Shown one piece after another: positions 8,894 to 32,000 of a stretch of 32,000 bases of DNA. Every line of letters begins with the position of its first letter. The stretch's first letter is position 1. The position numbers and the translations under genes were made by a program. This DNA comes from Delftia acidovorans NBRC 14950 (GTDB taxonomy: Bacteria > Pseudomonadota > Gammaproteobacteria > Burkholderiales > Burkholderiaceae_C), in the NCBI RefSeq assembly GCF_001598795.1, contig NZ_BCZP01000004.1, forward strand, positions 1-32,000, in the 5' to 3' direction. The notes below the pieces were generated by a model. It saw nothing but the letters and a program-made list of their open reading frames with translations. It was not told the DNA's origin and made no database searches.

Positions 8894-10207
8894 ATGGACC
8901 CTGCTTTGACCAAGCAAACCGTCTCGACCCGCAACATCGTGGCTGCCGTCATCGGCAACGCGCTGGAGTGGTATGACTTCCTGGTGTTCGCCTTCATGAC
9001 ACCCATCGTCGCCAAGCTGTTCTTCCCCAGCAATCCCGACAATCCGGACGACAACATCAACCGCATCCTGATGACCACGGCCGTGTTCGGCGTGGGCTTT
9101 TTCATGCGGCCCGTGGGCGGCATCCTGCTGGGCCTGTACGGGGACCGCAAGGGCCGCAAGGCGGCCATGGTGATGGTGACGGGCCTGATGGCCGTGGCGA
9201 TCGCGCTGATCACGCTGGCGCCCACCTATGCGGCGGTGGGCATCCTGGCGCCGCTGTTCATCGTGCTGGCACGGCTGCTGCAGGGCTTTGCGGCCGGCGG
9301 CGAGTTCGGCACGTCCACGGCACTGCTGATCGAGCTGGCACCGCCCGGCAAGCGCGGCTTCTATGGTTCCTGGCAGATGGCCGGCCAGATGCTGGCCCTG
9401 CTGATCGGCGCGGCCACGGGCACGCTGATCACCGAGATCTTCACCGAGGAGGAACTGATGGCCTGGGCCTGGCGCGTGCCCTTCGCCGTGGGCCTGCTGA
9501 TCGTTCCCGTGGCGCTGTACATCCGCCGCCATGTGGAGGAGCCCGAGGTCTTCAAGGAAATGCAGGCCGCTCAGGCCAGCGGCAAGGCGCGCCAGATCGG
9601 CATCATGGAGATGCTGCGCACGCATGCGCGCGAGACGCTGGTGGGCATGGGCCTGGTGGTCACGGCCACGGTGTCCATCTACATCACCTTCACCTATCTG
9701 GTGACCTATGCCACGGTGACGCTGAAGCTGCCCATGCGCGATGCCTTCATGGTGCAGATGGCCGGCGCCGCGCTGATGGTGGTGATCATGCCGTTCTTCG
9801 GCGCCCTGTCGGACCGCGTGGGCCGCCGCATGCTGACCATCGGCTCGCTGATCGGCTACCTGGTGGTGCTCTACCCGCTGTATGCCTGGCTGACCGACGG
9901 CCCCACGGTGCAGAAGCTGCTGATCACCCAGCTGGTGGTCTGCGTGTTCGTGGCCGTGTTCTTCGGCGTGTTCAGCACGGTGATGGCCGAGCTGTTCCCG
10001 CCCCAGGTGCGTTCGGCCGGCATGTCCATGGCCTACAACGTGGCGGTGATGATCTTCGGCGGCTTCGCGCAGTTCATCGTGACCTGGCTGATCCGCTCCA
10101 CGGGCTCGCCCATGGCGCCGGCCTTCTATGTGATGTTCGGCGTGACGCTGGGCCTGTTCGCGGCCTTCTTCATCAAGGACCGCGCGATGGAGCGCAACCT
10201 GCGCTGA
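8894..10207 (+). CDS. MFS transporter, metabolite:H+ symporter (MHS; KgtP/ProP/CitA-like) family (437 aa)
   Basis: IGNALEWYDFLVFAFMTPIVAKLFFP, GGILLGLYGDRKGRKAAMV and 12 hydrophobic segments are typical of the MHS subfamily. Confidence 0.85.
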   Translation: MDPALTKQTVSTRNIVAAVIGNALEWYDFLVFAFMTPIVAKLFFPSNPDNPDDNINRILMTTAVFGVGFFMRPVGGILLGLYGDRKGRKAAMVMVTGLMAVAIALITLAPTYAAVGILAPLFIVLARLLQGFAAGGEFGTSTALLIELAPPGKRGFYGSWQMAGQMLALLIGAATGTLITEIFTEEELMAWAWRVPFAVGLLIVPVALYIRRHVEEPEVFKEMQAAQASGKARQIGIMEMLRTHARETLVGMGLVVTATVSIYITFTYLVTYATVTLKLPMRDAFMVQMAGAALMVVIMPFFGALSDRVGRRMLTIGSLIGYLVVLYPLYAWLTDGPTVQKLLITQLVVCVFVAVFFGVFSTVMAELFPPQVRSAGMSMAYNVAVMIFGGFAQFIVTWLIRSTGSPMAPAFYVMFGVTLGLFAAFFIKDRAMERNLR

Positions 10208-14057: not shown

Positions 14058-14091
14058 TCGAGCGCTGAATGCCGCTGCGGCGGCGTCCATG

Positions 14092-14120
14092 AAAAAGCCA
14101 GGGCATGCCCTGGCTTTTTT
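14092..14120. terminator. Bidirectional rho-independent terminator between the GDPD gene (+) and metH (-)
   Basis: AAAAA-GCCAGGGCATGCCCTGGC-TTTTTT: a perfect palindromic stem flanked by an A5 run and a T6 run. Confidence 0.85.
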
Positions 14121-21566: not shown

Positions 21567-22796
21567 TTACTTGTCCTGAGCGATGGGCAGGTCCACCCCG
21601 CCCGTGATGATCTTCTGTGGTCCCTCGGCCGTGGGATTGATGTCGAAGTCGAAGATCTCCGTGGGCAGCCACAGCGTGGCGCAGGCATTGGGCACGTCCA
21701 CCACGCCGCTGATGTGGCCCTGCACGGGCGCCGTGCCCAGCAGCGAGTAGGCCTGGGCGCCGCTGTAGCCGAATTTCTTCAGGTACTCGATGGCGTTCAG
21801 GCAGGCCTGGCGGTAGGCCACGGTCACGTCCAGGTAGTGCTGCTTGCCCTTTTCGTCCACCGAGATGCCTTCGAAGATCAGGTAGTCCTTGTAGTTGGGC
21901 GTCATGGGGCTGGGCTTGAAGATGGGGTTCTTGATGCCGTACTTGGCCATGCCGCCCTTGATCAGCGAGACCTTCATGTGCACCCAGCCCGCCATCTCGA
22001 TGGCGCCGCAGAAGGTGATCTCGCCATCGCCCTGGCTGAAGTGCAGGTCGCCCACGCTCAGGCCCGCGCCGTCCACGTAGACGGGGAAGAACACGCGCGA
22101 GCCGCGCGAGAGGTCCTTGATGTCGCAGTTGCCGCCGTGCTCGCGCGGCGGCACGGTGCGTGCGCCTTCGGCGGCGGCCTTGTCGCGCGCCTCGCCCTGC
22201 ATCTGGCCCATGTGGGCGGTGGTGGCGTTGGGCGGGTTGGCCAGGCCGGGGATGCGGTCGGGGTCGGTGGCGATGAGGCCGGTCTCGCGCTCATTCCAGC
22301 TGGCCAGCATCTTGGGGTCGGGCAGGCAGCCGATCAGCCCCGGGTGGATGAGGCCTGCGAAGTTGACGCCGGGAATGTGGCGGCTCTTGGTGAACATGCC
22401 GTGGAAGTCCCAGATGGACTTCTGGGCCAGCGGGAAATGCTCGTCCAGGAAGCCGCCGCCATTCTGCTTGGAGAAAAAGCCGTTGAAGCCCCAGAGGCTG
22501 TCGTCGCGCGCGCCGATGTCCAGCAGGTCCACCACCAGCAGGTCGCCGGGCTCGGCGCCCTTGACGCCCACGGGGCCGGACAGGAAGTGGACGGTGGACA
22601 GGTCCACGTCGCGCACGTCTTCGGCGCTGTCGTCGTTCTTGATGGCGCCGCCGGTCCAGTCATAGGTCTCCAGCTTGAACTCCGCGCCCGGCTCCACCCA
22701 GACCGCCATGGGGATGTCGGGATGCCAGCGGTTGTGCACCTGCGGGTTGTCGTAGGGGGACTGGTTGAGATCGACCTTGATCAGGGTTTCGGCCAT
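21567..22796 (-). CDS. fmdA: Formamidase (acetamidase/formamidase family, 409 aa)
   Basis: MAETLIKVDLNQSPYDNPQVHNRWHPDIP...GPVGVKGAEPGD...GGNCDIKDL...FSQGDGEITFCGAIEM are typical FmdA-family sequences. Confidence 0.92.
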   Translation of the reverse strand: MAETLIKVDLNQSPYDNPQVHNRWHPDIPMAVWVEPGAEFKLETYDWTGGAIKNDDSAEDVRDVDLSTVHFLSGPVGVKGAEPGDLLVVDLLDIGARDDSLWGFNGFFSKQNGGGFLDEHFPLAQKSIWDFHGMFTKSRHIPGVNFAGLIHPGLIGCLPDPKMLASWNERETGLIATDPDRIPGLANPPNATTAHMGQMQGEARDKAAAEGARTVPPREHGGNCDIKDLSRGSRVFFPVYVDGAGLSVGDLHFSQGDGEITFCGAIEMAGWVHMKVSLIKGGMAKYGIKNPIFKPSPMTPNYKDYLIFEGISVDEKGKQHYLDVTVAYRQACLNAIEYLKKFGYSGAQAYSLLGTAPVQGHISGVVDVPNACATLWLPTEIFDFDINPTAEGPQKIITGGVDLPIAQDK

Positions 22797-22832: not shown

Positions 22833-23522
22833 TCAGACGGAGAGGTAGGACTTGATGCGCTGTTCATCCGTATCAGCACGGGCCGTCTCATGGACCAGGC
22901 GGCCGCCCTCGATGACGAACAGCCGGTCAGCCACATCCATGGCGAAGGAAAGCACCTGCTCGCTGACCACGATGGTGATGCGGCGCAGCTTGCGGATCTC
23001 GTTGAGCGCCTTGGCGATGTCCTTGATGATGGAAGGCTGTATGCCCTCGGTGGGCTCGTCCAGCAGCAGCACCTTGGGGTCGGTGACCAGGGCGCGCGCA
23101 ATGGCCAGCTGCTGCTGCTGCCCGCCCGAGAGGTTGCCGCCCTTGCGCCGGCGCATGTCCCAGAGCACGGGGAACAGGGCGTAGATGTCGTCGGGCACCT
23201 GGCGCGTCTTCGCGTTCTCCAGGCCCGTCTGTATGTTCTCCTCCACGGTCAGCGTGGGGAAGATCATGCGGCCCTGGGGCACGTAGGCAATGCCCTTGGC
23301 CACGCGCCGGAAGCTCTCGTCCTTCGTGACGTCCTGGCCGGCCACGGTGATCTGGCCGCTCTTGGCGGGCATGACGCCCATCAGGCTTTTGAACAGCGTG
23401 GTCTTGCCCATGCCGTTGCGGCCCATGATGGCCACGGTTTCGTTCTCGCGGCCCTCGAAGCTGATGCCGTGCAGCGCCTCGCTCTGGCCATAGGCCACGT
23501 ACAGATCCTTGACTTGCAGCAT
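22833..23522 (-). CDS. urtE: Urea/short-chain-amide ABC transporter ATP-binding protein UrtE-like (229 aa)
   Basis: GRNGMGKTT, LSGGQQQQLAIARAL, LLLDEPTEGIQP. This is the last ATPase gene of the urt-type operon. Confidence 0.9.
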   Translation of the reverse strand: MLQVKDLYVAYGQSEALHGISFEGRENETVAIMGRNGMGKTTLFKSLMGVMPAKSGQITVAGQDVTKDESFRRVAKGIAYVPQGRMIFPTLTVEENIQTGLENAKTRQVPDDIYALFPVLWDMRRRKGGNLSGGQQQQLAIARALVTDPKVLLLDEPTEGIQPSIIKDIAKALNEIRKLRRITIVVSEQVLSFAMDVADRLFVIEGGRLVHETARADTDEQRIKSYLSV

Positions 23523-23542
23523 GTGAATTCCTTGTGCGTGCC

Positions 23543-24286
23543 TCAGTGGCCGAGGTAGACGTCGATGACCTTGGGGTCGGCCTGCACCTTGTCCATGGGA
23601 CCCTCGGCGAGGATCTTTCCCTGGTGCATGACGGTGACCTTGTGCGCGATGCGCGCCACGAACTCCATGTCGTGCTCGATGACGATGACGGAGCGGTTCT
23701 TGCAGATGCGCTGCAGCAGCTCGGCCGTCAGTTCGCGTTCGCGGGCGCTCATGCCGGCGATGGGCTCGTCCAGCATCAGCAGCTCGGGCTCCTGCATGAG
23801 CAGCATGCCGATCTCCAGCCACTGCTTCTGGCCATGGCTGAGCAGGCCGGCCTCGGTGTCCAGGCGCTCGTCCAGGCCGATGTCGGCGGCCACGGCCTGC
23901 ACGCGATCGCGCACCGCCTCCGTGCACTTGAAGGCCAGCGCACCGAAGACCGAGCGGCCTTGCGGGTAGGAGACCTCCAGGTTCTGGAAGACCGACAGGT
24001 TCTCGTAGATGGACGGCGTCTGGAACTTGCGCCCAATCCCCAGGCGCACGCGCTTGTGCTCAGCCATGCGCGTGAGTTCCTCGTTCTTGAACTTGATGCT
24101 GCCGGCCGTGGCGCGGGTCTTGCCGCAGATCAGGTCCAGCAGCGTGGTCTTGCCCGCGCCGTTGGGGCCGATGATGACGCGCAGCTCGTTCTTGTCGATG
24201 TACAGGTTCAGCGCGTCGATGGCCTTGAAGCCGTCGAAGGAGACCGTCAGGTCTTCCACGGCCAGCGTGAAGTCGGTATTGCTCAT
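23543..24286 (-). CDS. urtD: Urea/short-chain-amide ABC transporter ATP-binding protein UrtD-like (247 aa)
   Basis: GPNGAGKTT, LSHGQKQWLEIGMLL, LMLDEPIAGM. Confidence 0.9.
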   Translation of the reverse strand: MSNTDFTLAVEDLTVSFDGFKAIDALNLYIDKNELRVIIGPNGAGKTTLLDLICGKTRATAGSIKFKNEELTRMAEHKRVRLGIGRKFQTPSIYENLSVFQNLEVSYPQGRSVFGALAFKCTEAVRDRVQAVAADIGLDERLDTEAGLLSHGQKQWLEIGMLLMQEPELLMLDEPIAGMSARERELTAELLQRICKNRSVIVIEHDMEFVARIAHKVTVMHQGKILAEGPMDKVQADPKVIDVYLGH

Positions 24287-24305
24287 GGTGTGCTCCCGCT
24301 GTGGT

Positions 24306-25508
24306 TCAGGCGCCCTGGCGGCCCATGCCTTCGGACAGGGCGGACGTGGGCTTGGTGGCGGCCGGGGCCGGGGCAGGTGCTGCCTGGGCTCCCTGCGCTG
24401 CGGCAGGCGCTGCGCCAGGTGCCGTGCCCTTGCGGCGGCTGTTCCACCACGGAACGATGCGGCTTTCCCACAGGCCGGCCAGCCCCATCGGGAAGGCCAT
24501 GGTCACGCCGATGAACAGGCCCGCCATGAGGAACAGCCACAGGTCCGGGAAGCTCTCCGAGAAATAGGTCTTGCCCGCGTTGACCAGCAGCGTGCCGTAC
24601 ACGGCGCCCACCAGGCTCATGCGCCCGCCCACGGCGGCGTAGATGACCATTTCGATGGAGGGCACGATGCCCACGAAGCTGGGCGACATGAAGCCCACCT
24701 GCAGCGTGAATAGCGCGCCGCCCACGCCCGACAGCGCAGCGGCCAGGCAGAACACGAAGACCTTGAAGTTGGCCACGTCGTAGCCGGAAAAGCGCACGCG
24801 GTCTTCCTTGTCGCGCATGGCCAGCAGCAGGGTGCCCACCTTGCCGGTCTGAATCCAGCGGCACAGCACGATGGCGCCGATCAGCAGGGCCACGCAGACG
24901 TAGTAGAGGATGTACTTGGCGCTGTCCGTGCGCGTGTCCCAGCCCCACAGGGTCTTGAGGTCGGTCATGCCGTTGACGCCGCCCGTGTAGCCCTGCTGGC
25001 CGATGATGAGCACGGTGACGATCAGCGCCACGGCCTGCGTGATGATGGCGAAGTACACGCCGCCCACGCGGCGCTTGAACATGGCGAAGCTGATGAGCCA
25101 GGCCAGCAGCGTGGGCACGGCGATGACGGCGGCCAGCGAGAACGGCAGGCTCTTGAAGGGCAGCCAGAACGAGGGCAGCTCGGTCAGCTGGTTCCAGTCC
25201 ATGAAGTCGGGGATGCCGGGCGTGGACTGGATCTTGGTGCTGATGGGGTCGGACGCCTCCAGCTTCAGGAACATGGCCATGGCATAGCCGCCCAGGCCGA
25301 AGAACACGCCCTGGCCCAGGCTGAGCACGCCGCCATAGCCCCAGACCATGACCAGGCCGATGGCGACGAAGGCATAGGTCAGGTACTTGCCGACCAGGTT
25401 GAGGCGGAAGATGTCCAGCGCCAGGGGCAGCACCACCGCCAGCAGGACGGTGAGCAGCACCAGGCTGGCGAGCTGGTAGCGCTGTATCCAGGCTTTGAGG
25501 GCTTGCAT
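24306..25508 (-). CDS. urtC: Urea/short-chain-amide ABC transporter permease UrtC-like (400 aa) with an Ala/Pro-rich C-terminal tail
   Basis: Branched-chain-type (LivM-like) permease with about 10 hydrophobic segments, in the conserved position between urtB and urtD. Confidence 0.9.
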   Translation of the reverse strand: MQALKAWIQRYQLASLVLLTVLLAVVLPLALDIFRLNLVGKYLTYAFVAIGLVMVWGYGGVLSLGQGVFFGLGGYAMAMFLKLEASDPISTKIQSTPGIPDFMDWNQLTELPSFWLPFKSLPFSLAAVIAVPTLLAWLISFAMFKRRVGGVYFAIITQAVALIVTVLIIGQQGYTGGVNGMTDLKTLWGWDTRTDSAKYILYYVCVALLIGAIVLCRWIQTGKVGTLLLAMRDKEDRVRFSGYDVANFKVFVFCLAAALSGVGGALFTLQVGFMSPSFVGIVPSIEMVIYAAVGGRMSLVGAVYGTLLVNAGKTYFSESFPDLWLFLMAGLFIGVTMAFPMGLAGLWESRIVPWWNSRRKGTAPGAAPAAAQGAQAAPAPAPAATKPTSALSEGMGRQGA

Positions 25509-25570
25509 GGAATGACTCCGGTGAACTCAGGGGAAATCGGGGGAACTCGTGGACAGGGCCGGCGCCGGGA

Positions 25571-26485
25571 TCAGCGCCGCACCTTGGACGCGAACAGGCC
25601 CTGGGGACGCAGCATCAGGATGAAGACGATCAGCGACAGCGTGATCACCTTGGCCATGGAGCCCGCCAGGAAGAACTCGGTGATGGACTGCGTCTGCGCA
25701 ATTCCGAAGGCCGAGACCACGGTGCCCAGCAGGCTGGCCGCGCCGCCGAAGGTGACCACCAGGAAGGCGTCCACGATGTACAGCGAGCCCGAGGTGGGGC
25801 CGGTGGAGCCGATGGTGGTGAAGGCCGCACCCGCCACGCCTGCGATGCCGCAGCCGATGGCAAAGGTCAGGCGGTCGGTCTTCTTGGTGTCGATGCCGAT
25901 GGCATTGGCCATCACGCGGTTGCTGACCGTGGCACGCACGCGCAGGCCCCAGCGGCTCTTGTGCAGCGCGATCAGCACGCCGGCCGTGACCACCGCGGTC
26001 AGCGCCAGCACGAACAGGCCGTTGATGGGAATGTCCAGCCCCTCGGCCGGCGCCCACGAGCCCATCAGCCAGTCAGGCAGGGTGGGGCTGACTTCCTTGG
26101 GGCCGATGAAGGTGCGAAAGCACTGCTGCAGCGCCAGGCTCACGCCCCAGGTGGCCAGCAGCGTGTCCAGCGGGCGCTTGTAGAGGTGGCGGATCAGCCC
26201 CCACTCCACCAGCCAGCCGGCCGCGAAGGCGAACAGGAAGGCGGCCACGATGGCCAGCGGGAAGTAGTAGGGCATGAACTCGGGCGCGTGCTGCGCCGTG
26301 AGCGTGGAGCCCAGGTAGATGGTGTAGGCGCCAATGGTCATGAACTCGCCATGCGCCATGTTGATCACGCCCATCTGGCCAAAGATGATGGCCAGGCCCA
26401 GGCCCATCAGCAGCAGCACGGCGAACAGGCTCAGCCCCGCGAAGCCCTGCATCAGGCCGATGTTCATCATGTCGGAAAAACTCAT
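25571..26485 (-). CDS. urtB: Urea/short-chain-amide ABC transporter permease UrtB-like (304 aa)
   Basis: LivH-like permease: GLAIIFGQMGVINMAHGEFMTIGAY. Confidence 0.9.
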   Translation of the reverse strand: MSFSDMMNIGLMQGFAGLSLFAVLLLMGLGLAIIFGQMGVINMAHGEFMTIGAYTIYLGSTLTAQHAPEFMPYYFPLAIVAAFLFAFAAGWLVEWGLIRHLYKRPLDTLLATWGVSLALQQCFRTFIGPKEVSPTLPDWLMGSWAPAEGLDIPINGLFVLALTAVVTAGVLIALHKSRWGLRVRATVSNRVMANAIGIDTKKTDRLTFAIGCGIAGVAGAAFTTIGSTGPTSGSLYIVDAFLVVTFGGAASLLGTVVSAFGIAQTQSITEFFLAGSMAKVITLSLIVFILMLRPQGLFASKVRR

Positions 26486-26595: not shown

Positions 26596-27861
26596 TTACT
26601 GGTAACCCTTGGGGAAGGGATCGGGTTTGATGAGTTCAGGCGACTCCGAGACCACCTTGAACGTGCCGTCCGGCTGCCCCACGGCAATGCGCGACTTGCT
26701 CCACAGGTGGTGGTTGGCGTCCACCTTCACGTAGCCTTCGGGCGCGGTCTTGAGTTCCAGCCCCGGCGATGCGGCCACCACCTTGTCCACGTCGAAGCTC
26801 TTGGCCTTTTCCACGGCGGCCTTCCACAGCCAGGGGCCCAGGTAGCCGGCCTGGGTGACGTCGCCGATGACGGCGTTGGGGCCGTACTTGGCCTTGAAGG
26901 CGGCCACGAACTTCTTGTTGTTCTCGTTGTCCAGCGTCTGGAAGTACTTCATCGAGGAGTAAAAACCCGTGAAGTTCTCGCCGCCCACGCCGGTCATCTC
27001 GTCCTCGGTCACCGACAGCGTGACCAGCAATTGCTTGTCACCCGTGATGCCTGCGGCCTTGAGCGCCTTGTAGAAGGCCACGTTGGAGCCGCCCACCACG
27101 GCCACGAAGATGCAGTCCGGCTTTTGCAGCTTGATCTTGTTGACCAGCGAGCCGAAGTTGGTGCTGCCCAGCGGGTAGTACTCCTCGCCGACGACCTTGC
27201 CCTTCTGGAAGTTTTCGATGTGCTTGCGCGCGATCTTCATCGAGGTGCGCGGCCAGATGTAGTCCGAGCCGATCAGGAAGAAGGTCTTGGCCTTCTTCTC
27301 GGCCTTGGCCCAGTCCAGGCTGTACAGGATCTGCTGCGTGGCTTCCTGGCCCGTGTAGATCACGTTCTTGGACTGCTCCAGGCCTTCGTAGAAGGTGGGG
27401 TAGTACAGCAGGCCGTTTTCCTTCTCGAACACGGGCAGCACGGCCTTGCGCGAGGCGCTGGTCCAGCAGCCGAAGACGGCGGCGCAGCGGTCGTTGATGA
27501 GCAGTTTCTTGGACTTCTCGGCGAAGGTGGGCCAGTCGGAGGCGCCGTCTTCCTTGATCACGCGGATCTTGCGGCCCAGGATGCCGCCCATGGCGTTGAT
27601 CTGGTCGATGGCCAGTTGCTCGGCCTGGATGGAGCCGGTCTCGGAGATCGCCATGGTGCCCGTGGCCGAGTGCAGCTGACCCACGACGACTTCGGTGTCG
27701 GTCACGGCCAGCTTGGTGGTGTTGACCTGGGCCGTGGGCTGGGCGAAGGACCAGGCCGGCAGCCCGGCCACCGAGGCGGCGCCAAGCGCCTGCAGGACGC
27801 GGCGGCGGCCCATTTCCGTGCCGGGGGAACCAGGTGTGCGGGGGTCGGAGGGGTGGCTCAT
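26596..27861 (-). CDS. urtA: Urea/short-chain-amide periplasmic binding protein UrtA/FmdD-like (421 aa)
   Basis: Twin-arginine-like leader GRRRVLQALGAASVAGLPAWSFAQ. VGQLHSATGTMAISE, EDGASDWPTFAEK, VFGCWTSASRKAVLPVFE and YYPTFYEGLEQS closely resemble UrtA. AGGAGA lies 6 nt upstream of the ATG. Confidence 0.9.
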   Translation of the reverse strand: MSHPSDPRTPGSPGTEMGRRRVLQALGAASVAGLPAWSFAQPTAQVNTTKLAVTDTEVVVGQLHSATGTMAISETGSIQAEQLAIDQINAMGGILGRKIRVIKEDGASDWPTFAEKSKKLLINDRCAAVFGCWTSASRKAVLPVFEKENGLLYYPTFYEGLEQSKNVIYTGQEATQQILYSLDWAKAEKKAKTFFLIGSDYIWPRTSMKIARKHIENFQKGKVVGEEYYPLGSTNFGSLVNKIKLQKPDCIFVAVVGGSNVAFYKALKAAGITGDKQLLVTLSVTEDEMTGVGGENFTGFYSSMKYFQTLDNENNKKFVAAFKAKYGPNAVIGDVTQAGYLGPWLWKAAVEKAKSFDVDKVVAASPGLELKTAPEGYVKVDANHHLWSKSRIAVGQPDGTFKVVSESPELIKPDPFPKGYQ

Positions 27862-27978
27862 GGTGACTCTCCTGTAAGGATCGGTTGGGTGATCTGCAAG
27901 TGGCTGAAAACTGGCGTTGCGGTTACGGCTTGTTTCCGCGCTGGGTCCAAGATTAGGAAGAACCCTTGAAACCGCCCA

Positions 27979-28010
27979 TACGTCAATTGACGTAGCCATC
28001 TGCGTACGCA
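27979..28010. promoter_or_regulatory. Perfect 16-bp palindrome TACGTCAATTGACGTA followed 6 bp later by the 10-bp palindrome TGCGTACGCA, in the urtA / kinase divergent region
   Basis: Read directly: 27979-27994 and 28001-28010. Both share a TACG/CGTA core and lie in the 214-bp divergent intergenic region. Confidence 0.45.
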
Positions 28011-28075
28011 CCCCACGCACCCTTCTTGAAAGCCGCGCCAGCATTGGCCCCGCACGTTTCTTGCTAGACCTGGGA

Positions 28076-31000
28076 ATGCACTCCGCACCCCCGCCCGACA
28101 GCCCCGCCAGCACCTCGCCCGCGCCGCAGACCATCTTTCGGTTCCGGCGCGAATACAACGCCTGGGTGGCCGACGAGACCATGGAGGACTACGCGCTGCG
28201 CTACACGCCGCGCAGCTTTCGGCGCTGGAGCGAGTTCCGCGTGGCCAACACGGCCTTCGGCTCGCTGTCCTTCCTGGCGCTGGAGGCGATCGGCGGCGCC
28301 ATTGCGCTGAACTACGGCTTTGCCAACGCCATGTGGGCCATCGTCACCGTGGGGCTGGTGATCTTCCTGACGGGGCTGCCCATCGCCGTCTGCGCGGCAC
28401 GCTACGGGCTGGACATGGACCTGCTGACGCGGGGCGCGGGCTTCGGCTACCTGGGCTCGACCATCACCTCGCTGATCTACGCCGTCTTCACCTTCATCTT
28501 CTTCGCGCTGGAGGCGGCCATCATGGCGCTGGCCCTGCAGCTGGTGGTGGACTGGCCGCTGCAGTGGTGCTATGCGCTGTCGGCCCTGGTGGTGCTGCCG
28601 CTGGCCATGCGCGGCATCACGCTGATCTCGCGCCTGCAGGCCTGGACGCAGCCGCTGTGGCTGTTCCTGCTGGTGCTGCCTTTCGTGTGGATGGCGCTGT
28701 CCCAGCCCCAGCTGTACCGCGACTTCGCCAGCCTCACCGGCCTGCGCTCGGGCAGCAGCCAGTTCGATCCGCTGATGTTCGGCGCGGCGGCGGCCGTGAT
28801 CTTCGCGCTGGTGGTGCAGATCGGCGAGCAGGTGGACTTCCTGCGCTTTCTGCCGCCGCGCACCCGGGCCAACCGCCTGCGCTGGTGGGGCGCGGTGCTG
28901 GTGGCCGGACCGGGCTGGGCCGTGATGGGCATGCTCAAGATGGCGGGCGGCGCGTTTCTCGCCTTCGCGGCCATGCAGCTGGAAGGGGTGGACGCCTCGC
29001 GCGCGGCCGAGCCCACGCAGATGTTTCTGGTGGGCTTCCAGCAGGTGCTGCAGGCCCTGGGCCTGCCGGGGCTGGCTGTGGCGGTGACCGTGGTCTTCGT
29101 GGTCATCTCGCAGGTCAAGATCAACGTGACCAATGCCTACGCGGGGTCGCTTGCCTGGTCCAACTTCTTCGCGCGCATCACGCGCAGCCATCCGGGGCGC
29201 GTGGTCTGGATGGTGTTCAACGTGGTCATCGCCACCTTGCTGATGACGCTGGGCGTGTTCGGCGCGCTGGAGAAGGTGCTGACCATCTACAGCAACGTGG
29301 CCATCGCCTGGGTGGGTGCGCTGGTGGCCGACCTGGTCATCAACAAGCCGCTGGGACTGAGTCCGCCGGGCATCGAGTTCCGCCGCGCCCATCTGTACGA
29401 CTTCAATCCCGTGGGTCCGGGCGCCATGCTGCTGGCCGCCGCCGTGGCCTGCTGCGCCTATGCGGGCCTGCTGGGCGAGACGGCGGCCGCGTTCTCGCCC
29501 TTCATCGCGCTGGCGCTGTCCATGCTGCTGTCGCCGCTGCTGGCCTGGCTGACGGGCGGGCGCTACTACCTGGCGCGGCCCGCAGGCAACCTGTGGAAGC
29601 CCGGCGAGACCGTGCGCTGCGCCGTCTGCCAGAAGCATTTCGAATCCGAGGACATGGCGCACTGCCCCGCCTACGGCGCGCCCATCTGCTCGCTTTGCTG
29701 CTCGCTGGAGTCGCGCTGCCATGACCGCTGCAAGACCGGATCGCGCGCGGGCGAGCAGTTGCATGCGCTGGCCTCGGCCCTGCTGCCGCCGCGCTGGGCG
29801 ACCAAGGTGAACTTCCGCGCGGGCCAGTACCTGGTGGTGATGCTGTCGCTGTGCGCGGTGACGGCCTTCATGGTGGGCGTGGTCTACATGCAGGAAAGCC
29901 TGCAGGCAGGCAGCGTCGATGGCGGCGCGCTGCGCATCCCCTTCCTCAAGGTCTTCGCGCTGCTGGCCCTGCTGTGCGCCGTGGCCGCCTGGTGGGTGGT
30001 GCTGAGCACGGACAGCCGGCGCATGGCGCAGGACGAGTCCGAGCGCCAGAACCAGCTGCTGCTGCAGGAGATCGCCGCCCACAAGCGCACCGATGCCGAG
30101 CTGCAGGCCGCCAAGGACCATGCCGAGCAGGCCAGCCAGGCCAAGACCCGCTACGTGGCCGGCATGACGCACGAGCTGCGCTCGCCGCTCAACAGCCTGC
30201 TGGGCTATACGCAGATCCTGCTCAAGAGCCCGCAGGTCGATGGCTGGGTGCGCGAGACCCTGTCCACCATGCAGCACAGCGGCCAGCACCTGCGCGCGCT
30301 GATCGACGAATCGCTGGAGTTGGCCAGCATCGAGGCCGGCCGCCTGCGCCTGGACCTCGCCCCCCTGCCCCTGCCCGCGCTGATCGACGGCATCGAGGCC
30401 ATGATGCGGCCCCAGGCCCAGGCCAGGGGGCTGCAGTTCTCGGTCGAGACGCTGGGCACCATGCCGCGCTGGGTGCGGGCCGACGCCAAGCGGCTGCGCC
30501 AGATCCTGATCAACCTGCTGTCCAACGCCGTGCGCTTCACCCAACGCGGCGAGGTGCGGCTGCGCATGGACTTCAGGCCCCATGTCTCGCGCATCGAGGT
30601 CATCGATACCGGCATCGGGATCGAACCGCAGGACATGGAGCGCATCTTCGTGCCCTTCGAGCGCGGCAGCGCGGGGCGGCGCGTCAGCGAGGCGGGCACG
30701 GGCCTGGGGCTGACCATCACCCATCTGCTGACCGAGCTGATGGGCGGCCAGCTCACCCTGAGCAGCACGCCCGGCGAGGGCAGCTGCTTCACCGTGCGCC
30801 TGTACCTGCCCGAGATGGCGCCCGACGCGTCCTGGGTCCCTCCGGGCGCCGCCGCCACGCTGCACACCGTCATCGGCTATCTGCCGCCCCGGCGCACCCT
30901 GCTGGTGGTGGACGACCAGCCGCTGCAGCGCCAGCTGCTGGCCGGCCTGCTGCTGCCGCTGGGCTTCGAGATCCGCGAGGCCGCCAGTGGCCGCGAGTGC

Positions 31001-31576
31001 CTGGAGATCGTGGAGCAAAGCCCGCCCGACCTGGTGCTGCTGGACATCAGCATGGACGACCTGGACGGCTGGCAGACCGCCGCCCTGCTGCGCGCGCGCT
31101 GGGATGCGCAGCAGCTGCCCGTGGTCTTCGTCTCGGCCAACCTGTTCGACAACGACCCGCCGCGCCTGGCCGATGCGCGCTGCCAGGGCTTTGTCGCCAA
31201 GCCCGTGACCGAGTCCGAGCTGCTGCAGGTGCTCGAGCGCGTGCTGCGGCTGGAGTGGGTGCATGACAACCGCCCGCTGCTGCTGCCGGCGCCACGTGCA
31301 GAGCAGGCAGAGGCCAAGGCAGAGGAGGCGCCGTCAGCCGCCCCCTTCCCGCCCGACCTGCGTGAAGACCTGGCCCGGCTGGCGCGCTCGGGCCAGGCCA
31401 CCGCCCTGCGCGAGCGCCTGCGCCAGGCGCGCCAGCAGGCGCCCGCGCATGCCGCGCTGCTCGATGCGCTGCAGGCCTGCGCGAACCGCTTCGACTTCGA
31501 TGCGCTGGCGCGCATGCTGCCGCGGCCCGAGCAAGAGGATGAAGAAGACGAAGAAAGAGAGGAGACCGATGAATGA
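28076..31576 (+). CDS. Hybrid sensor histidine kinase with an N-terminal NCS1/CodB-like permease domain, a Cys-rich module, 2 extra TM helices, HisKA, HATPase_c and a receiver domain (1166 aa)
   Basis: The permease-like part has about 12 hydrophobic helices, with VDFLRF and KINVTNAYAGSLAWSNF resembling CodB ADFVRF and NIWTTNDNALYASGLGF. H-box MTHELRSPLNS (His codon 30170-30172). N, G1 and G2 boxes LINLLSNAVRF, DTGIGI, GTGLGLTI. Receiver LLVVDDQ...LVLLDISMDDLDGW...AKP (Asp codon 31043-31045). The start ATG 28076 was chosen as the first ATG of the open frame, which opens with TTG at 27917. Confidence 0.88.
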   Translation: MHSAPPPDSPASTSPAPQTIFRFRREYNAWVADETMEDYALRYTPRSFRRWSEFRVANTAFGSLSFLALEAIGGAIALNYGFANAMWAIVTVGLVIFLTGLPIAVCAARYGLDMDLLTRGAGFGYLGSTITSLIYAVFTFIFFALEAAIMALALQLVVDWPLQWCYALSALVVLPLAMRGITLISRLQAWTQPLWLFLLVLPFVWMALSQPQLYRDFASLTGLRSGSSQFDPLMFGAAAAVIFALVVQIGEQVDFLRFLPPRTRANRLRWWGAVLVAGPGWAVMGMLKMAGGAFLAFAAMQLEGVDASRAAEPTQMFLVGFQQVLQALGLPGLAVAVTVVFVVISQVKINVTNAYAGSLAWSNFFARITRSHPGRVVWMVFNVVIATLLMTLGVFGALEKVLTIYSNVAIAWVGALVADLVINKPLGLSPPGIEFRRAHLYDFNPVGPGAMLLAAAVACCAYAGLLGETAAAFSPFIALALSMLLSPLLAWLTGGRYYLARPAGNLWKPGETVRCAVCQKHFESEDMAHCPAYGAPICSLCCSLESRCHDRCKTGSRAGEQLHALASALLPPRWATKVNFRAGQYLVVMLSLCAVTAFMVGVVYMQESLQAGSVDGGALRIPFLKVFALLALLCAVAAWWVVLSTDSRRMAQDESERQNQLLLQEIAAHKRTDAELQAAKDHAEQASQAKTRYVAGMTHELRSPLNSLLGYTQILLKSPQVDGWVRETLSTMQHSGQHLRALIDESLELASIEAGRLRLDLAPLPLPALIDGIEAMMRPQAQARGLQFSVETLGTMPRWVRADAKRLRQILINLLSNAVRFTQRGEVRLRMDFRPHVSRIEVIDTGIGIEPQDMERIFVPFERGSAGRRVSEAGTGLGLTITHLLTELMGGQLTLSSTPGEGSCFTVRLYLPEMAPDASWVPPGAAATLHTVIGYLPPRRTLLVVDDQPLQRQLLAGLLLPLGFEIREAASGRECLEIVEQSPPDLVLLDISMDDLDGWQTAALLRARWDAQQLPVVFVSANLFDNDPPRLADARCQGFVAKPVTESELLQVLERVLRLEWVHDNRPLLLPAPRAEQAEAKAEEAPSAAPFPPDLREDLARLARSGQATALRERLRQARQQAPAHAALLDALQACANRFDFDALARMLPRPEQEDEEDEEREETDE

Positions 31577-32000
31577 GAACCCGCAAAGGCCACAGATGAC
31601 GACCGCCGACAGCAGCAGCCACCCCAGCCACCCCCCTCACAACGCCCACGTCATCCTCGTGGTGGACGACGCGCTGGACAGCCTGCGCATGCTGTGCGAC
31701 GCGCTGGCCGCCGAAGGCTACGTGGTGCTCGCCGCCCGCGACGCCGACGAGGCCCTGCAGCGCTTCGCCCTCACCGTGCCCGACGGCGTGCTGCTGGACG
31801 CCGTCATGCCCGGCATGGACGGCTTCACGCTGTGCCGCACGCTCAAGGCCACGCCGGCCTGGGCCCATGTGCCCGTGGTGTTCATGACCGGCCTGTCGGA
31901 CACGGACCAGATCATCCGCGGCTTTGCCAGCGGTGGCGTGGACTACGTGGTCAAGCCGCTGCGCATCCCCGAGGTGCTGGTGCGCCTGGCCACCCATGTG
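31569..32000 (+). CDS. Response regulator, receiver domain (partial; 3' end beyond the window)
   Basis: My own translation gives MNENPQRPQMTTAD...VILVVDDALDSLRMLCDALAAEGYVVLAARDADEAL...VLLDAVMPGMDGF...VVFMTGLSD...DYVVKPLRIPEVL. The frame is open to the window edge, so it is absent from the ORF track. It overlaps the kinase stop by 8 nt, and GGAG lies 4 nt upstream of the ATG. Confidence 0.85.
   Translation, partial: MNENPQRPQMTTADSSSHPSHPPHNAHVILVVDDALDSLRMLCDALAAEGYVVLAARDADEALQRFALTVPDGVLLDAVMPGMDGFTLCRTLKATPAWAHVPVVFMTGLSDTDQIIRGFASGGVDYVVKPLRIPEVLVRLATHV

Follow-up and report, generated by a model that had tools for sequence, protein, structure and literature searches.

Which protein tells a bacterium that urea or a short amide, both major nitrogen sources in soil, water and hosts, is at hand? 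To our knowledge, the detection of these compounds, by which urt, fmd, ami and ure genes come to be induced, is poorly understood beyond AmiC/AmiR, UreR and general NtrC/NtcA control. The question is raised by a locus of Delftia acidovorans NBRC 14950 in which a hybrid histidine kinase gene with a permease-like N-terminal half, together with a response regulator gene, lies divergent from urtABCDE-fmdAB, the genes for a Urt-type ATP-binding cassette (ABC) importer and a formamidase. The window analyzed here is a stretch of 32,000 nucleotides (nt) of contig NZ_BCZP01000004.1, and all coordinates refer to its forward strand (Table 1). The answer that we consider likely is that kinase and regulator form a transceptor two-component system, which senses formamide, another short amide or urea and activates the adjacent urtABCDE-fmdAB operon.

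The initial annotation had described one 1166-amino-acid (aa) open reading frame (ORF) joining a roughly 12-helix permease-like domain to a complete HisKA/HATPase/receiver unit, an overlapping response regulator gene behind it, and the divergent transcription of this pair from urtABCDE-fmdAB. All three statements were borne out. The ORF, the Pfam domains (PF00512, PF02518 and PF00072 all matched in the remainder of the kinase, as had been expected) and an AlphaFold (AF2) model agreed with the observed architecture. The regulator, which carries a receiver domain, starts at ATG 31569, ahead of the kinase stop codon (31574-31576), giving an 8-nt gene overlap, and is translationally coupled to the kinase. 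Pfam and NCBIfam matches and the strands confirmed the divergent operon, the start of which lies 214 bp from the kinase gene on the opposite strand; UrtA and FmdA scored above their NCBIfam cutoffs, with two BPD_transp_2 permeases and two ABC ATPases between them, as in a Urt-type importer with formamidase. Not contained in that annotation were an eight-cysteine (Cys8) module, two extra membrane helices, a palindrome upstream of urtA and a sigma-54-type element. The same 1166-aa product was obtained in independent gene calls on public contigs with the identical protein. TTG 27917 was rejected as kinase start; gene callers take ATG 28076, and conservation begins around residue 18 when counted from that ATG. 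The full-length regulator, as encoded beside the identical kinase on other contigs, has 339 aa, with Response_reg at 29-138 and a GerE/LuxR helix-turn-helix (HTH) at 275-330 (E 3e-19); this full-length copy, with its N-terminal receiver and C-terminal GerE HTH, qualified as a NarL/FixJ (LuxR-type) regulator.

The predicted fold of the N-terminal half was closest to that of the NCS1 transporters. In the AF2 model (residues 1-640, built on 22 homologues; pLDDT 77, pTM 0.79) there were 12 long membrane helices before approximately residue 493, followed by a small beta-rich module (512-552), long helices at 580-611 and 617-639 and a linker leading to HisKA; hydropathy was consistent with this layout. 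In a Foldseek comparison against the PDB the best five matches were all NCS1 proteins, Mhp1 (2jln, 4d1a, and 2x79) and CodB (7qoa A and B), with E from 9e-9 to 2e-6, TM-scores of 0.64-0.76 normalised to the target and 17-21% identity; the comparison with Mhp1 and CodB suggested in the initial annotation thus found both. Other LeuT-fold families (Nramp, SSS, NSS, APC) ranked lower, from E 1.6e-5. With hhalign, a 72-sequence sensor profile and one of 15 CodB sequences could be aligned colinearly across 354-396 columns, with a probability of 89.2% (E 2e-6) in local mode and 92.7% (E 6e-8) in global mode, the method being informative only with these two richer profiles, since against the single CodB sequence the probability was 11%. 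Sensor and CodB have in common a glycine in transmembrane helix (TM) 1 (G62 and G29, respectively), R-x-x-F-G-x-x-G-S, D-F-x-R-F after TM6, and T-N in TM8.

At the level of curated models the resemblance was fainter. The NCBIfam CodB model gave a weak but long match (residues 38-424, 19.3 bits vs. a cutoff of 326, E 3.9e-4), a stand-alone relative (P0241) reached 17.9 bits with PF02133 (cutoff 23.5), and homologues are annotated by JGI as 'purine-cytosine permease-like'. No Pfam or NCBIfam model covers the sensor half, the N-terminal approximately 680 aa being without any Pfam model, and at E ≤ 10 residues 1-575 gave only Prok-RING_1 (E 1.1), judged meaningless. The NCS1/CodB-like motifs first noticed in the sequence therefore held at fold and profile level (Foldseek, hhalign) and not at the curated thresholds of Pfam and NCBIfam, and the match to PF02133 that had been predicted was not reached at the Pfam threshold. 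Because of the Foldseek top five, the CodB profile alignment and the sub-threshold PF02133 match of the stand-alone relative, the sensor domain is a remote NCS1 relative lying below the curated family threshold; by the Pfam criterion it is not a PF02133 member.

Relatives of the sensor were abundant (of the candidate proteins scored, over 5,400 had E ≤ 1e-3; 1,895 clusters at 50% identity), and a scan of one genome per species found one in at least 581 species. Gene neighbourhoods were counted in the 80 best-matching loci of these species matches, which came from Comamonadaceae, Burkholderia, Paraburkholderia, Pandoraea, Trinickia, Bordetella, Achromobacter, Oxalobacteraceae and Rhodocyclales, and from Pseudomonas, Stutzerimonas, Nevskia, Bradyrhizobium and Xanthobacteraceae. 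The proposed co-occurrence with urt and fmd genes was strongly upheld: urtA was divergent within 1.6 kb in 54 of the 80 loci (beta-, gamma-, and alphaproteobacteria), fmdA was also present in 38 of the 39 loci with at least 7 kb of upstream flank, and the regulator stood directly 3' of the kinase in all 67 assessable loci. Thirteen further loci had a different urt cluster (around 40% identical) a few kb away, which in Massilia is convergent with the pair, and one Polaromonas paralogue was divergent from the urease genes ureJ-ureC. A conserved aliphatic amidase (CN_hydrolase) occurred near urt-fmd in 23 related loci, directly after fmdB in most (amidase loci: L001, L006, L008, L010, L016, L019-L022, L031-L035, L044, L049-L051, L060, L067, L069, and L073), and was 75-82% identical to the cyanobacterial copy described below; its position was approximately 1.3-3.3 kb in most of the 23 and 8847-9866 in L021. 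Two paralogues had unrelated neighbours, a DUF2126 amidoligase/transglutaminase protein in Dechloromonas (L041, 6447-10013, minus strand) and, in Actimicrobium (L052, 6209-9930, minus strand), a pair of LRR proteins of which one has an F-box.

The strongest single test of the association was provided by the cyanobacterium Leptolyngbya NIES-3755 (L085), where a non-hybrid kinase carries the sensor module (57% identity) and is accompanied by a receiver-MarR regulator, and where aliphatic amidase, fmdA, fmdB and urtABCDE follow downstream in this order: sensor module and target genes have stayed together while the signalling parts were exchanged. This co-occurrence, too, was among the evidence upholding the proposed link to urt and fmd. 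Just upstream of the Leptolyngbya kinase gene there is a tRNA-like sequence (approximately 9830-9915). The module was also found on a PAS-GAF-PAS-GGDEF-EAL protein (P0128), and it behaves as a portable input domain. A second cyanobacterial paralogue of the sensor kinase (L086, 10001-20021) is followed by a REC-PAS-kinase protein and adjoins Amidohydro_1 and transthyretin-like (HIU hydrolase-type) genes, a hint that this branch is linked to ureide catabolism.

Complete stand-alone relatives of 519-561 aa consist of the permease and the Cys8 module. Three independent genes of this type lay immediately upstream of amidase-signature genes: in the first the permease gene overlaps the amidase gene, in the second a PucR-type regulator is divergent from the permease gene, and the third belongs to an island that also contains genes for FmdA_AmdA, a CN_hydrolase and a further amidase. 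Such an arrangement is as expected for the substrate importer of an amidase and, because the stand-alone forms are placed in this way, the permease fold would recognise amides.

Candidate pocket positions were mapped onto CodB, in which cytosine is sandwiched by Trp108 and Phe204, 'conserved throughout the NCS1 family', and hydrogen-bonded by Gln105, while Gly29, Phe32, Asn275, Thr278, and Thr279 form the Na2 site (PMC9379551). In the hhalign alignment the substrate residues Q105, W108 and F204 corresponded to T139, F142 and L245 of the sensor, and the Na2-site region (G29, N275, T278, T279, and N280) to G62, K348, V351, T352 and N353. The mapped sensor residues were invariant or nearly invariant across the family, as were the polar residues at broken-helix positions (T139, Q248, E251, Q252, N350, T352, and N353, all invariant). 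These positions may serve as leads for mutagenesis rather than as findings. The invariant K348 falls on a Na2-site residue, and CbrA likewise has a lysine (K196) in its Na2 site (PMC13488458); K348 and V351 in place of N275 and T278 hint at Na+-independent behaviour, as in CbrA. According to the same alignment, on which the statement depends, the aromatic substrate sandwich of NCS1 was not kept (F142/L245), and a nucleobase ligand is therefore disfavoured. A comparison of fmd-linked (n = 53) with urea-linked (n = 13) sensors turned up only two differing positions, neither of them in the permease core. Both groups probably respond to one chemical feature, for instance the carboxamide common to urea and formamide. 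Of the candidate solutes named at the outset (formamide, urea, a short amide or a pyrimidine-like compound), a small carboxamide was favoured and a pyrimidine was not, in view of the lost aromatic pair and the pairing of stand-alone relatives with amidases.

These data bear on two other views of what the permease-like domain responds to. It could read the state of the Urt-type importer, or ligand-loaded UrtA, so that the kinase would report transport flux, much as BceS reads BceAB and LuxQ reads LuxP. The kinase is indeed almost always found beside a Urt-type ABC system with a binding protein, and pocket residues identical in fmd- and urea-linked sensors would fit a common partner. We nevertheless consider this co-sensing unlikely, as the stand-alone permease-Cys8 genes are paired with amidases where there is no Urt system, the GGDEF-EAL protein and kinases without urt genes within 10 kb carry the module too, and invariant polar residues at the broken-helix positions are what would be expected of a ligand site. 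The other view, for which we see still less room, is that the domain recognises a classical NCS1 substrate, be it a nucleobase, hydantoin, allantoin or another ureide, purine or pyrimidine catabolism being coupled in this way to nitrogen scavenging. Hydantoin and cytosine transporters are the closest structures, the second cyanobacterial paralogue stands beside amidohydrolase and transthyretin-like genes, and a PucR-family regulator flanks one stand-alone form; against this, the aromatic pair (PMC9379551) aligns to Phe and Leu and Q105 to Thr, and the neighbours that are chiefly conserved are genes for amide/urea uptake, formamidase, aliphatic amidase and urease rather than nucleobase genes.

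A conserved cis-element was observed between urtA and the kinase gene. A perfect 7-2-7 palindrome, whose TAC...GTA ends have the format typical of NarL/GerE-type dimers, lies in this intergenic region. With no more than one mismatch tolerated among the 12 fixed bases of TACGTC-N4-GACGTA, a scan of the 400 bp preceding the kinase gave 56 matches in 49 of the 80 loci. Elsewhere in 1.4 Mb there were eight matches, vs. 1.85 expected from shuffles, most of them also beside urt or fmd genes. Its distance to the urtA start was constrained (mostly 80-142 bp) and that to the kinase start was not (about 0 to 1231 bp); where an insertion splits urtA from the kinase the palindrome stays with urtA, and in Massilia a related copy lies approximately 100 bp upstream of the canonical urtA. 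The palindrome was absent from the Leptolyngbya locus, whose regulator has a MarR-type HTH. We take the palindrome as the candidate operator to which the LuxR-type regulator would bind. A second copy, TACGTTGGATGACGTA, occurs between urtE and fmdA in two Pseudomonas loci (L051 4636 and L067 4721), which suggests an internal regulated promoter for fmdA. Ahead of the amidase gene of Leptolyngbya (approximately 14090-14115) there is a different inverted repeat, ATAGTTAA-GAGA-TTAACTAT, which may be the site of the MarR-type regulator.

In Comamonadaceae an ungapped block, GATTAGGRAsAACCC, was conserved at fixed spacing from the palindrome, reading CCTAATC on the urtA strand; it is a possible -10 region of the urtA promoter, and if it holds this region the palindrome would be centred near -43, an activator position. 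A scan of the intergenic region for sigma-70 promoter and terminator consensus sequences found nothing. Upstream of the kinase, GGYAY-N5-TTGC was present within 160 nt in 38 of 78 related loci as compared to 1.3% of control windows, which points to the sensor genes of relatives being under sigma-54 and, by extension, nitrogen control. In the window the corresponding element reads CCGCAC-N5-TTGCT, one G of the -24 GG being lost, and we doubt that it is functional.

That relatives have a sigma-54-type promoter ahead of the kinase would also suit a system which, instead of detecting the substrate, responds to the product of amide hydrolysis or to nitrogen status in general (ammonium, pH), with repression or tuning of the operon as its output, and identical pockets in the fmd- and urea-linked groups would suit a common product such as ammonium. 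We hold this to be unlikely, about as much as a classical NCS1 ligand: the fold differs from that of known ammonium sensors, which use Amt modules, the stand-alone relatives upstream of amidases are placed like substrate importers, and the palindrome upstream of urtA occupies what would be an activator-like position. That the adjacency is fortuitous and the pair regulates other genes, unrelated to urt-fmd, is suggested by the few paralogues with unrelated neighbours; it is the least likely of these readings and already hard to hold, since the arrangement is kept in three classes of proteobacteria and recurs, with other signalling parts, in a cyanobacterium, and the palindrome is conserved at urtA.

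We return to the carboxamide-sensing transceptor and to the way in which its signal might travel. The eight cysteines (C515, C518, C530, C538, C541, C542, C548, and C552) follow helix 12 and were invariant in two alignments and across 66 loci. Since both termini of the 12-helix NCS1 fold are cytoplasmic, the Cys8 module is cytoplasmic as well; the AF2 model gave it four short strands and a helix. Modelled alone (AF2, pLDDT 77), it had no significant match in the PDB (best E 0.23), and the non-significant matches were mostly two-zinc RING, FYVE, PHD and FmdE-type fingers; that it is a zinc-binding cross-brace is our guess. TM13 and TM14 (hydropathy segments 582-608 and 614-648) bring the chain back to the cytoplasm, where a helix enters the dimerization and histidine phosphotransfer (DHp) domain directly, and Pfam found no PAS, HAMP or STAC match in the kinase. 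H699, the N, G1 and G2 boxes and D990 were all present, with all Pfam domains above their cutoffs, as in a hybrid histidine kinase. The conserved part of the C-terminal tail, which was compared in 44 full-length homologues, comprises around 70 helical residues with a G-H/Y-v-x-G motif, resembling a pseudo-HPt, and the tail ends in an acidic run, EDEEDEEREETDE. A working histidine phosphotransfer (HPt) domain in this tail was rejected, there being no Pfam match and the candidate His being Q in the window and Y or D in other homologues. The phosphoryl group may pass directly from His to the regulator Asp, with the fused receiver as sink or modulator, or through an unlinked HPt protein; the non-hybrid cyanobacterial version favours direct transfer as the basic design.

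In the mechanism that we propose, a small carboxamide (here formamide, another short-chain amide or urea) would bind the central pocket of the permease-like domain, and a rocking-bundle movement would pass via the Cys8 module and the TM13-TM14 hairpin to the DHp helix of the kinase. The kinase would phosphorylate the LuxR-type regulator, a dimer of which would bind the palindrome at roughly -43 and activate the genes of the amide/urea ABC importer and formamidase. The kinase-regulator operon would be read from a sigma-54 promoter in relatives, possibly weakly here, and the system would therefore be made under nitrogen limitation and fire only with amide present.

Several points weigh against this reading. 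Neither the whole protein nor residues 1-575 matched PF02133 even at E ≤ 10, and PDB sequence searches with the single domain or with a 22-sequence profile returned no transporter. The residue mapping to CodB comes from one remote hhalign alignment (89%), and because fmd- and urea-linked sensors have no group-specific pocket residue, ligand specificity is unreadable from sequence. The 80-locus sample is biased towards orthologues of the query; 13 of its loci had no such urt gene (six of them contigs shorter than 8.4 kb and one the urease-linked Polaromonas locus), and some paralogues had no urt, amidase or urease gene within 10 kb. There is no HPt domain in cis and, on contigs with the identical kinase, no HPt gene within 10 kb. 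The palindrome could belong to another factor. The -24 element is degenerate in the window, and its -12 GC lies 12 nt before the ATG, a spacing that implies a leaderless mRNA. What the data show is the architecture, the relationship to the NCS1 fold, the synteny and the conservation of the DNA element; which solute binds, whether the operon is activated, what the palindrome serves, how the signal travels and whether solute is transported are matters of inference.

The remaining features of the locus are collected in Table 1. Downstream of fmdB the window contains a convergent amino acid ABC transporter, and it has no aliphatic amidase gene. The fmdB product matched NF053663, 'RPWMISH domain-containing protein' (151.7 bits), besides the FmdB zinc-ribbon model TIGR02605.

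Table 1. Features of the kinase-regulator pair, the divergent operon and the region between them (positions in the window; residues are those of the kinase unless stated otherwise).
Feature	Position	Strand	Details and basis
Hybrid sensor histidine kinase gene, 1166 aa	28076..31576	+	ATG-start ORF, translation, Pfam domains
NCS1-like (LeuT-fold) 12-helix permease-like domain, residues ~36-495	28181..29560	+	AF2, Foldseek, hhalign
Cytoplasmic Cys8 module, residues ~505-555	29588..29740	+	Alignments, AF2 model
Two additional membrane helices TM13-TM14, residues ~580-639	29813..29992	+	AF2 580-611, 617-639
Helical linker from TM14 to kinase, residues 640-688	29993..30139	+	QDESERQNQLLLQEIAAHKRTDAELQAAKDHAEQ directly before HisKA; translation
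HisKA, residues 689-755	30140..30340	+	Phospho-acceptor H699 in THELRSPLN; PF00512 E 2.4e-14
HATPase_c, residues 803-911	30482..30808	+	NLLSNAV 813, DTGIGI 844, GTGLGL 874; PF02518 E 1.4e-27
Fused receiver, residues 943-1053	30902..31234	+	D990 in LVLLDISM; PF00072 E 9.7e-23
Conserved helical C-terminal tail, residues 1054-1166	31235..31573	+	44 full-length homologues
Response regulator gene, truncated by window end	31569..32000	+	Receiver with D77 (regulator numbering); PF00072 E 1.7e-22
Sigma-54-type -24/-12-like element, degenerate at -24	28050..28065	+	CCGCACGTTTCTTGCT; two mismatches to TGGCAC-N5-TTGCW
Perfect 7-2-7 palindrome, 16 bp, candidate operator	27979..27994	.	TACGTCAATTGACGTA; conserved in urtA-kinase intergenic region
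Conserved block, candidate -10 region of urtA promoter	27951..27965	-	GATTAGGAAGAACCC; ungapped conservation, Comamonadaceae
urtA-type periplasmic binding protein, operon gene 1	26596..27861	-	TIGR03407 509.3 bits (cutoff 492.75); Peripla_BP_5 E 6e-123
urtB	25571-26485	-	Pfam BPD_transp_2 x2 and ABC_tran x2 over urtBCDE (22833..26485); gene calls
urtC	24306-25508	-	ABC permease/ATPase group urtBCDE
urtD	23543-24286	-	ABC permease/ATPase group urtBCDE
urtE	22833-23522	-	ABC permease/ATPase group urtBCDE; start codon checked
fmdA, formamidase	21567..22796	-	NF045496 769.9 bits (cutoff 500); PF03069 E 5e-184
fmdB, zinc-ribbon protein, 119 aa	21161..21520	-	TIGR02605, NF053663, gene call

Among known systems, the SLC5/STAC kinases CbrA, CrbS/MxtR and RpuS (Pseudomonas, Vibrio, and Sinorhizobium) likewise carry an N-terminal LeuT-fold transporter domain on a histidine kinase, and the cognate regulators of CbrA, CrbS and RpuS control nutrient-use genes. 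The CbrA/CrbS family has an SLC5 domain, whereas the window kinase is NCS1-like, with Mhp1 and CodB as closest structures; neither SSF (PF00474) nor STAC was matched by Pfam in the window kinase, and SSS structures ranked below NCS1 in the fold search. The connector differs too, consisting of Cys8 and two extra membrane helices without STAC or PAS, the regulator is LuxR-type instead of the NtrC-type of the CbrA/CrbS group, and the neighbouring genes are for amide/urea use. CodB and Mhp1 themselves (TC 2.A.39, PF02133), the best structural matches with colinear alignment, lack the Cys8 module and the fused signalling domains. Ks-Amt5 and Sd-Amt1 also use a nitrogen-compound transporter fold as signalling input, on a kinase or a cyclase, with an Amt fold and a ligand unrelated to those of the window kinase. 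The window system works like the SLC5/STAC kinases and the Amt-fold receptors and, having no SLC5, STAC or Amt domain, is a member of neither. Bacterial transporter-kinase fusions have been called rare (PMC13488458; PMC11109136).

With respect to the target genes, the nearest comparison is AmiC/AmiR of Pseudomonas aeruginosa, which likewise serves short-chain amide catabolism genes and ABC-type uptake (PMC13209695). AmiC is a soluble sensor resembling a binding protein and AmiR an RNA antiterminator, in contrast with the membrane kinase and DNA-binding LuxR-type regulator of the window, among whose scanned proteins Pfam found no ANTAR (AmiR-type) match. Target genes of the same kind are the fmd genes of Methylophilus methylotrophus (FmdA, FmdB, and the amide/urea transporter FmdDEF), for which induction by urea as well as short-chain amides, and repression by ammonium, were reported in the 1990s. 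We know of no sensor identified and no two-component system described for them, and if our reading is true the window locus would supply the sensor missing for fmd genes of the Methylophilus type. A pair of histidine kinase and LuxR-type regulator has been noted, without more, beside a urtABCDE operon near fmdA (PMC13296017), the kinase being hybrid. GrtK/GrtR of Burkholderia glumae was rejected as a match, GrtK being an unrelated RegB/PilS-type kinase. Searches of the open-access literature yielded no work on the function of this system, an older description or one behind a paywall being possible; the statement that no kinase built on an NCS1-type permease has been characterised agreed with our search, as none turned up in open-access full texts.

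Transporter-fused kinases as such are already known, and the system is new in its family, its connector and its context, being widespread and without a curated model. More broadly, and as a tentative proposal in which we have less confidence than in the reading of the Delftia locus, the N-terminal approximately 640 residues (NCS1-derived fold, Cys8 metal module, and two-helix hairpin) could be an uncurated, widespread input module, a carboxamide receptor wired to LuxR, MarR and c-di-GMP outputs in Burkholderia, Pseudomonas, Bradyrhizobium, Comamonadaceae and cyanobacteria, the family being present in Bordetella/Achromobacter as well. The Cys8 module might add a metal or redox input. Sensor, regulator and 16-bp operator together could become an engineering part, as a candidate amide- or urea-inducible switch. 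With a second LeuT-fold class whose connector is different, one could compare between the two how transporter motions become kinase output. If the proposal is true, the long-missing inducer sensor of urt, fmd and ure genes would be found in this family, which would then represent a second, independent class of bacterial LeuT-fold transceptor.

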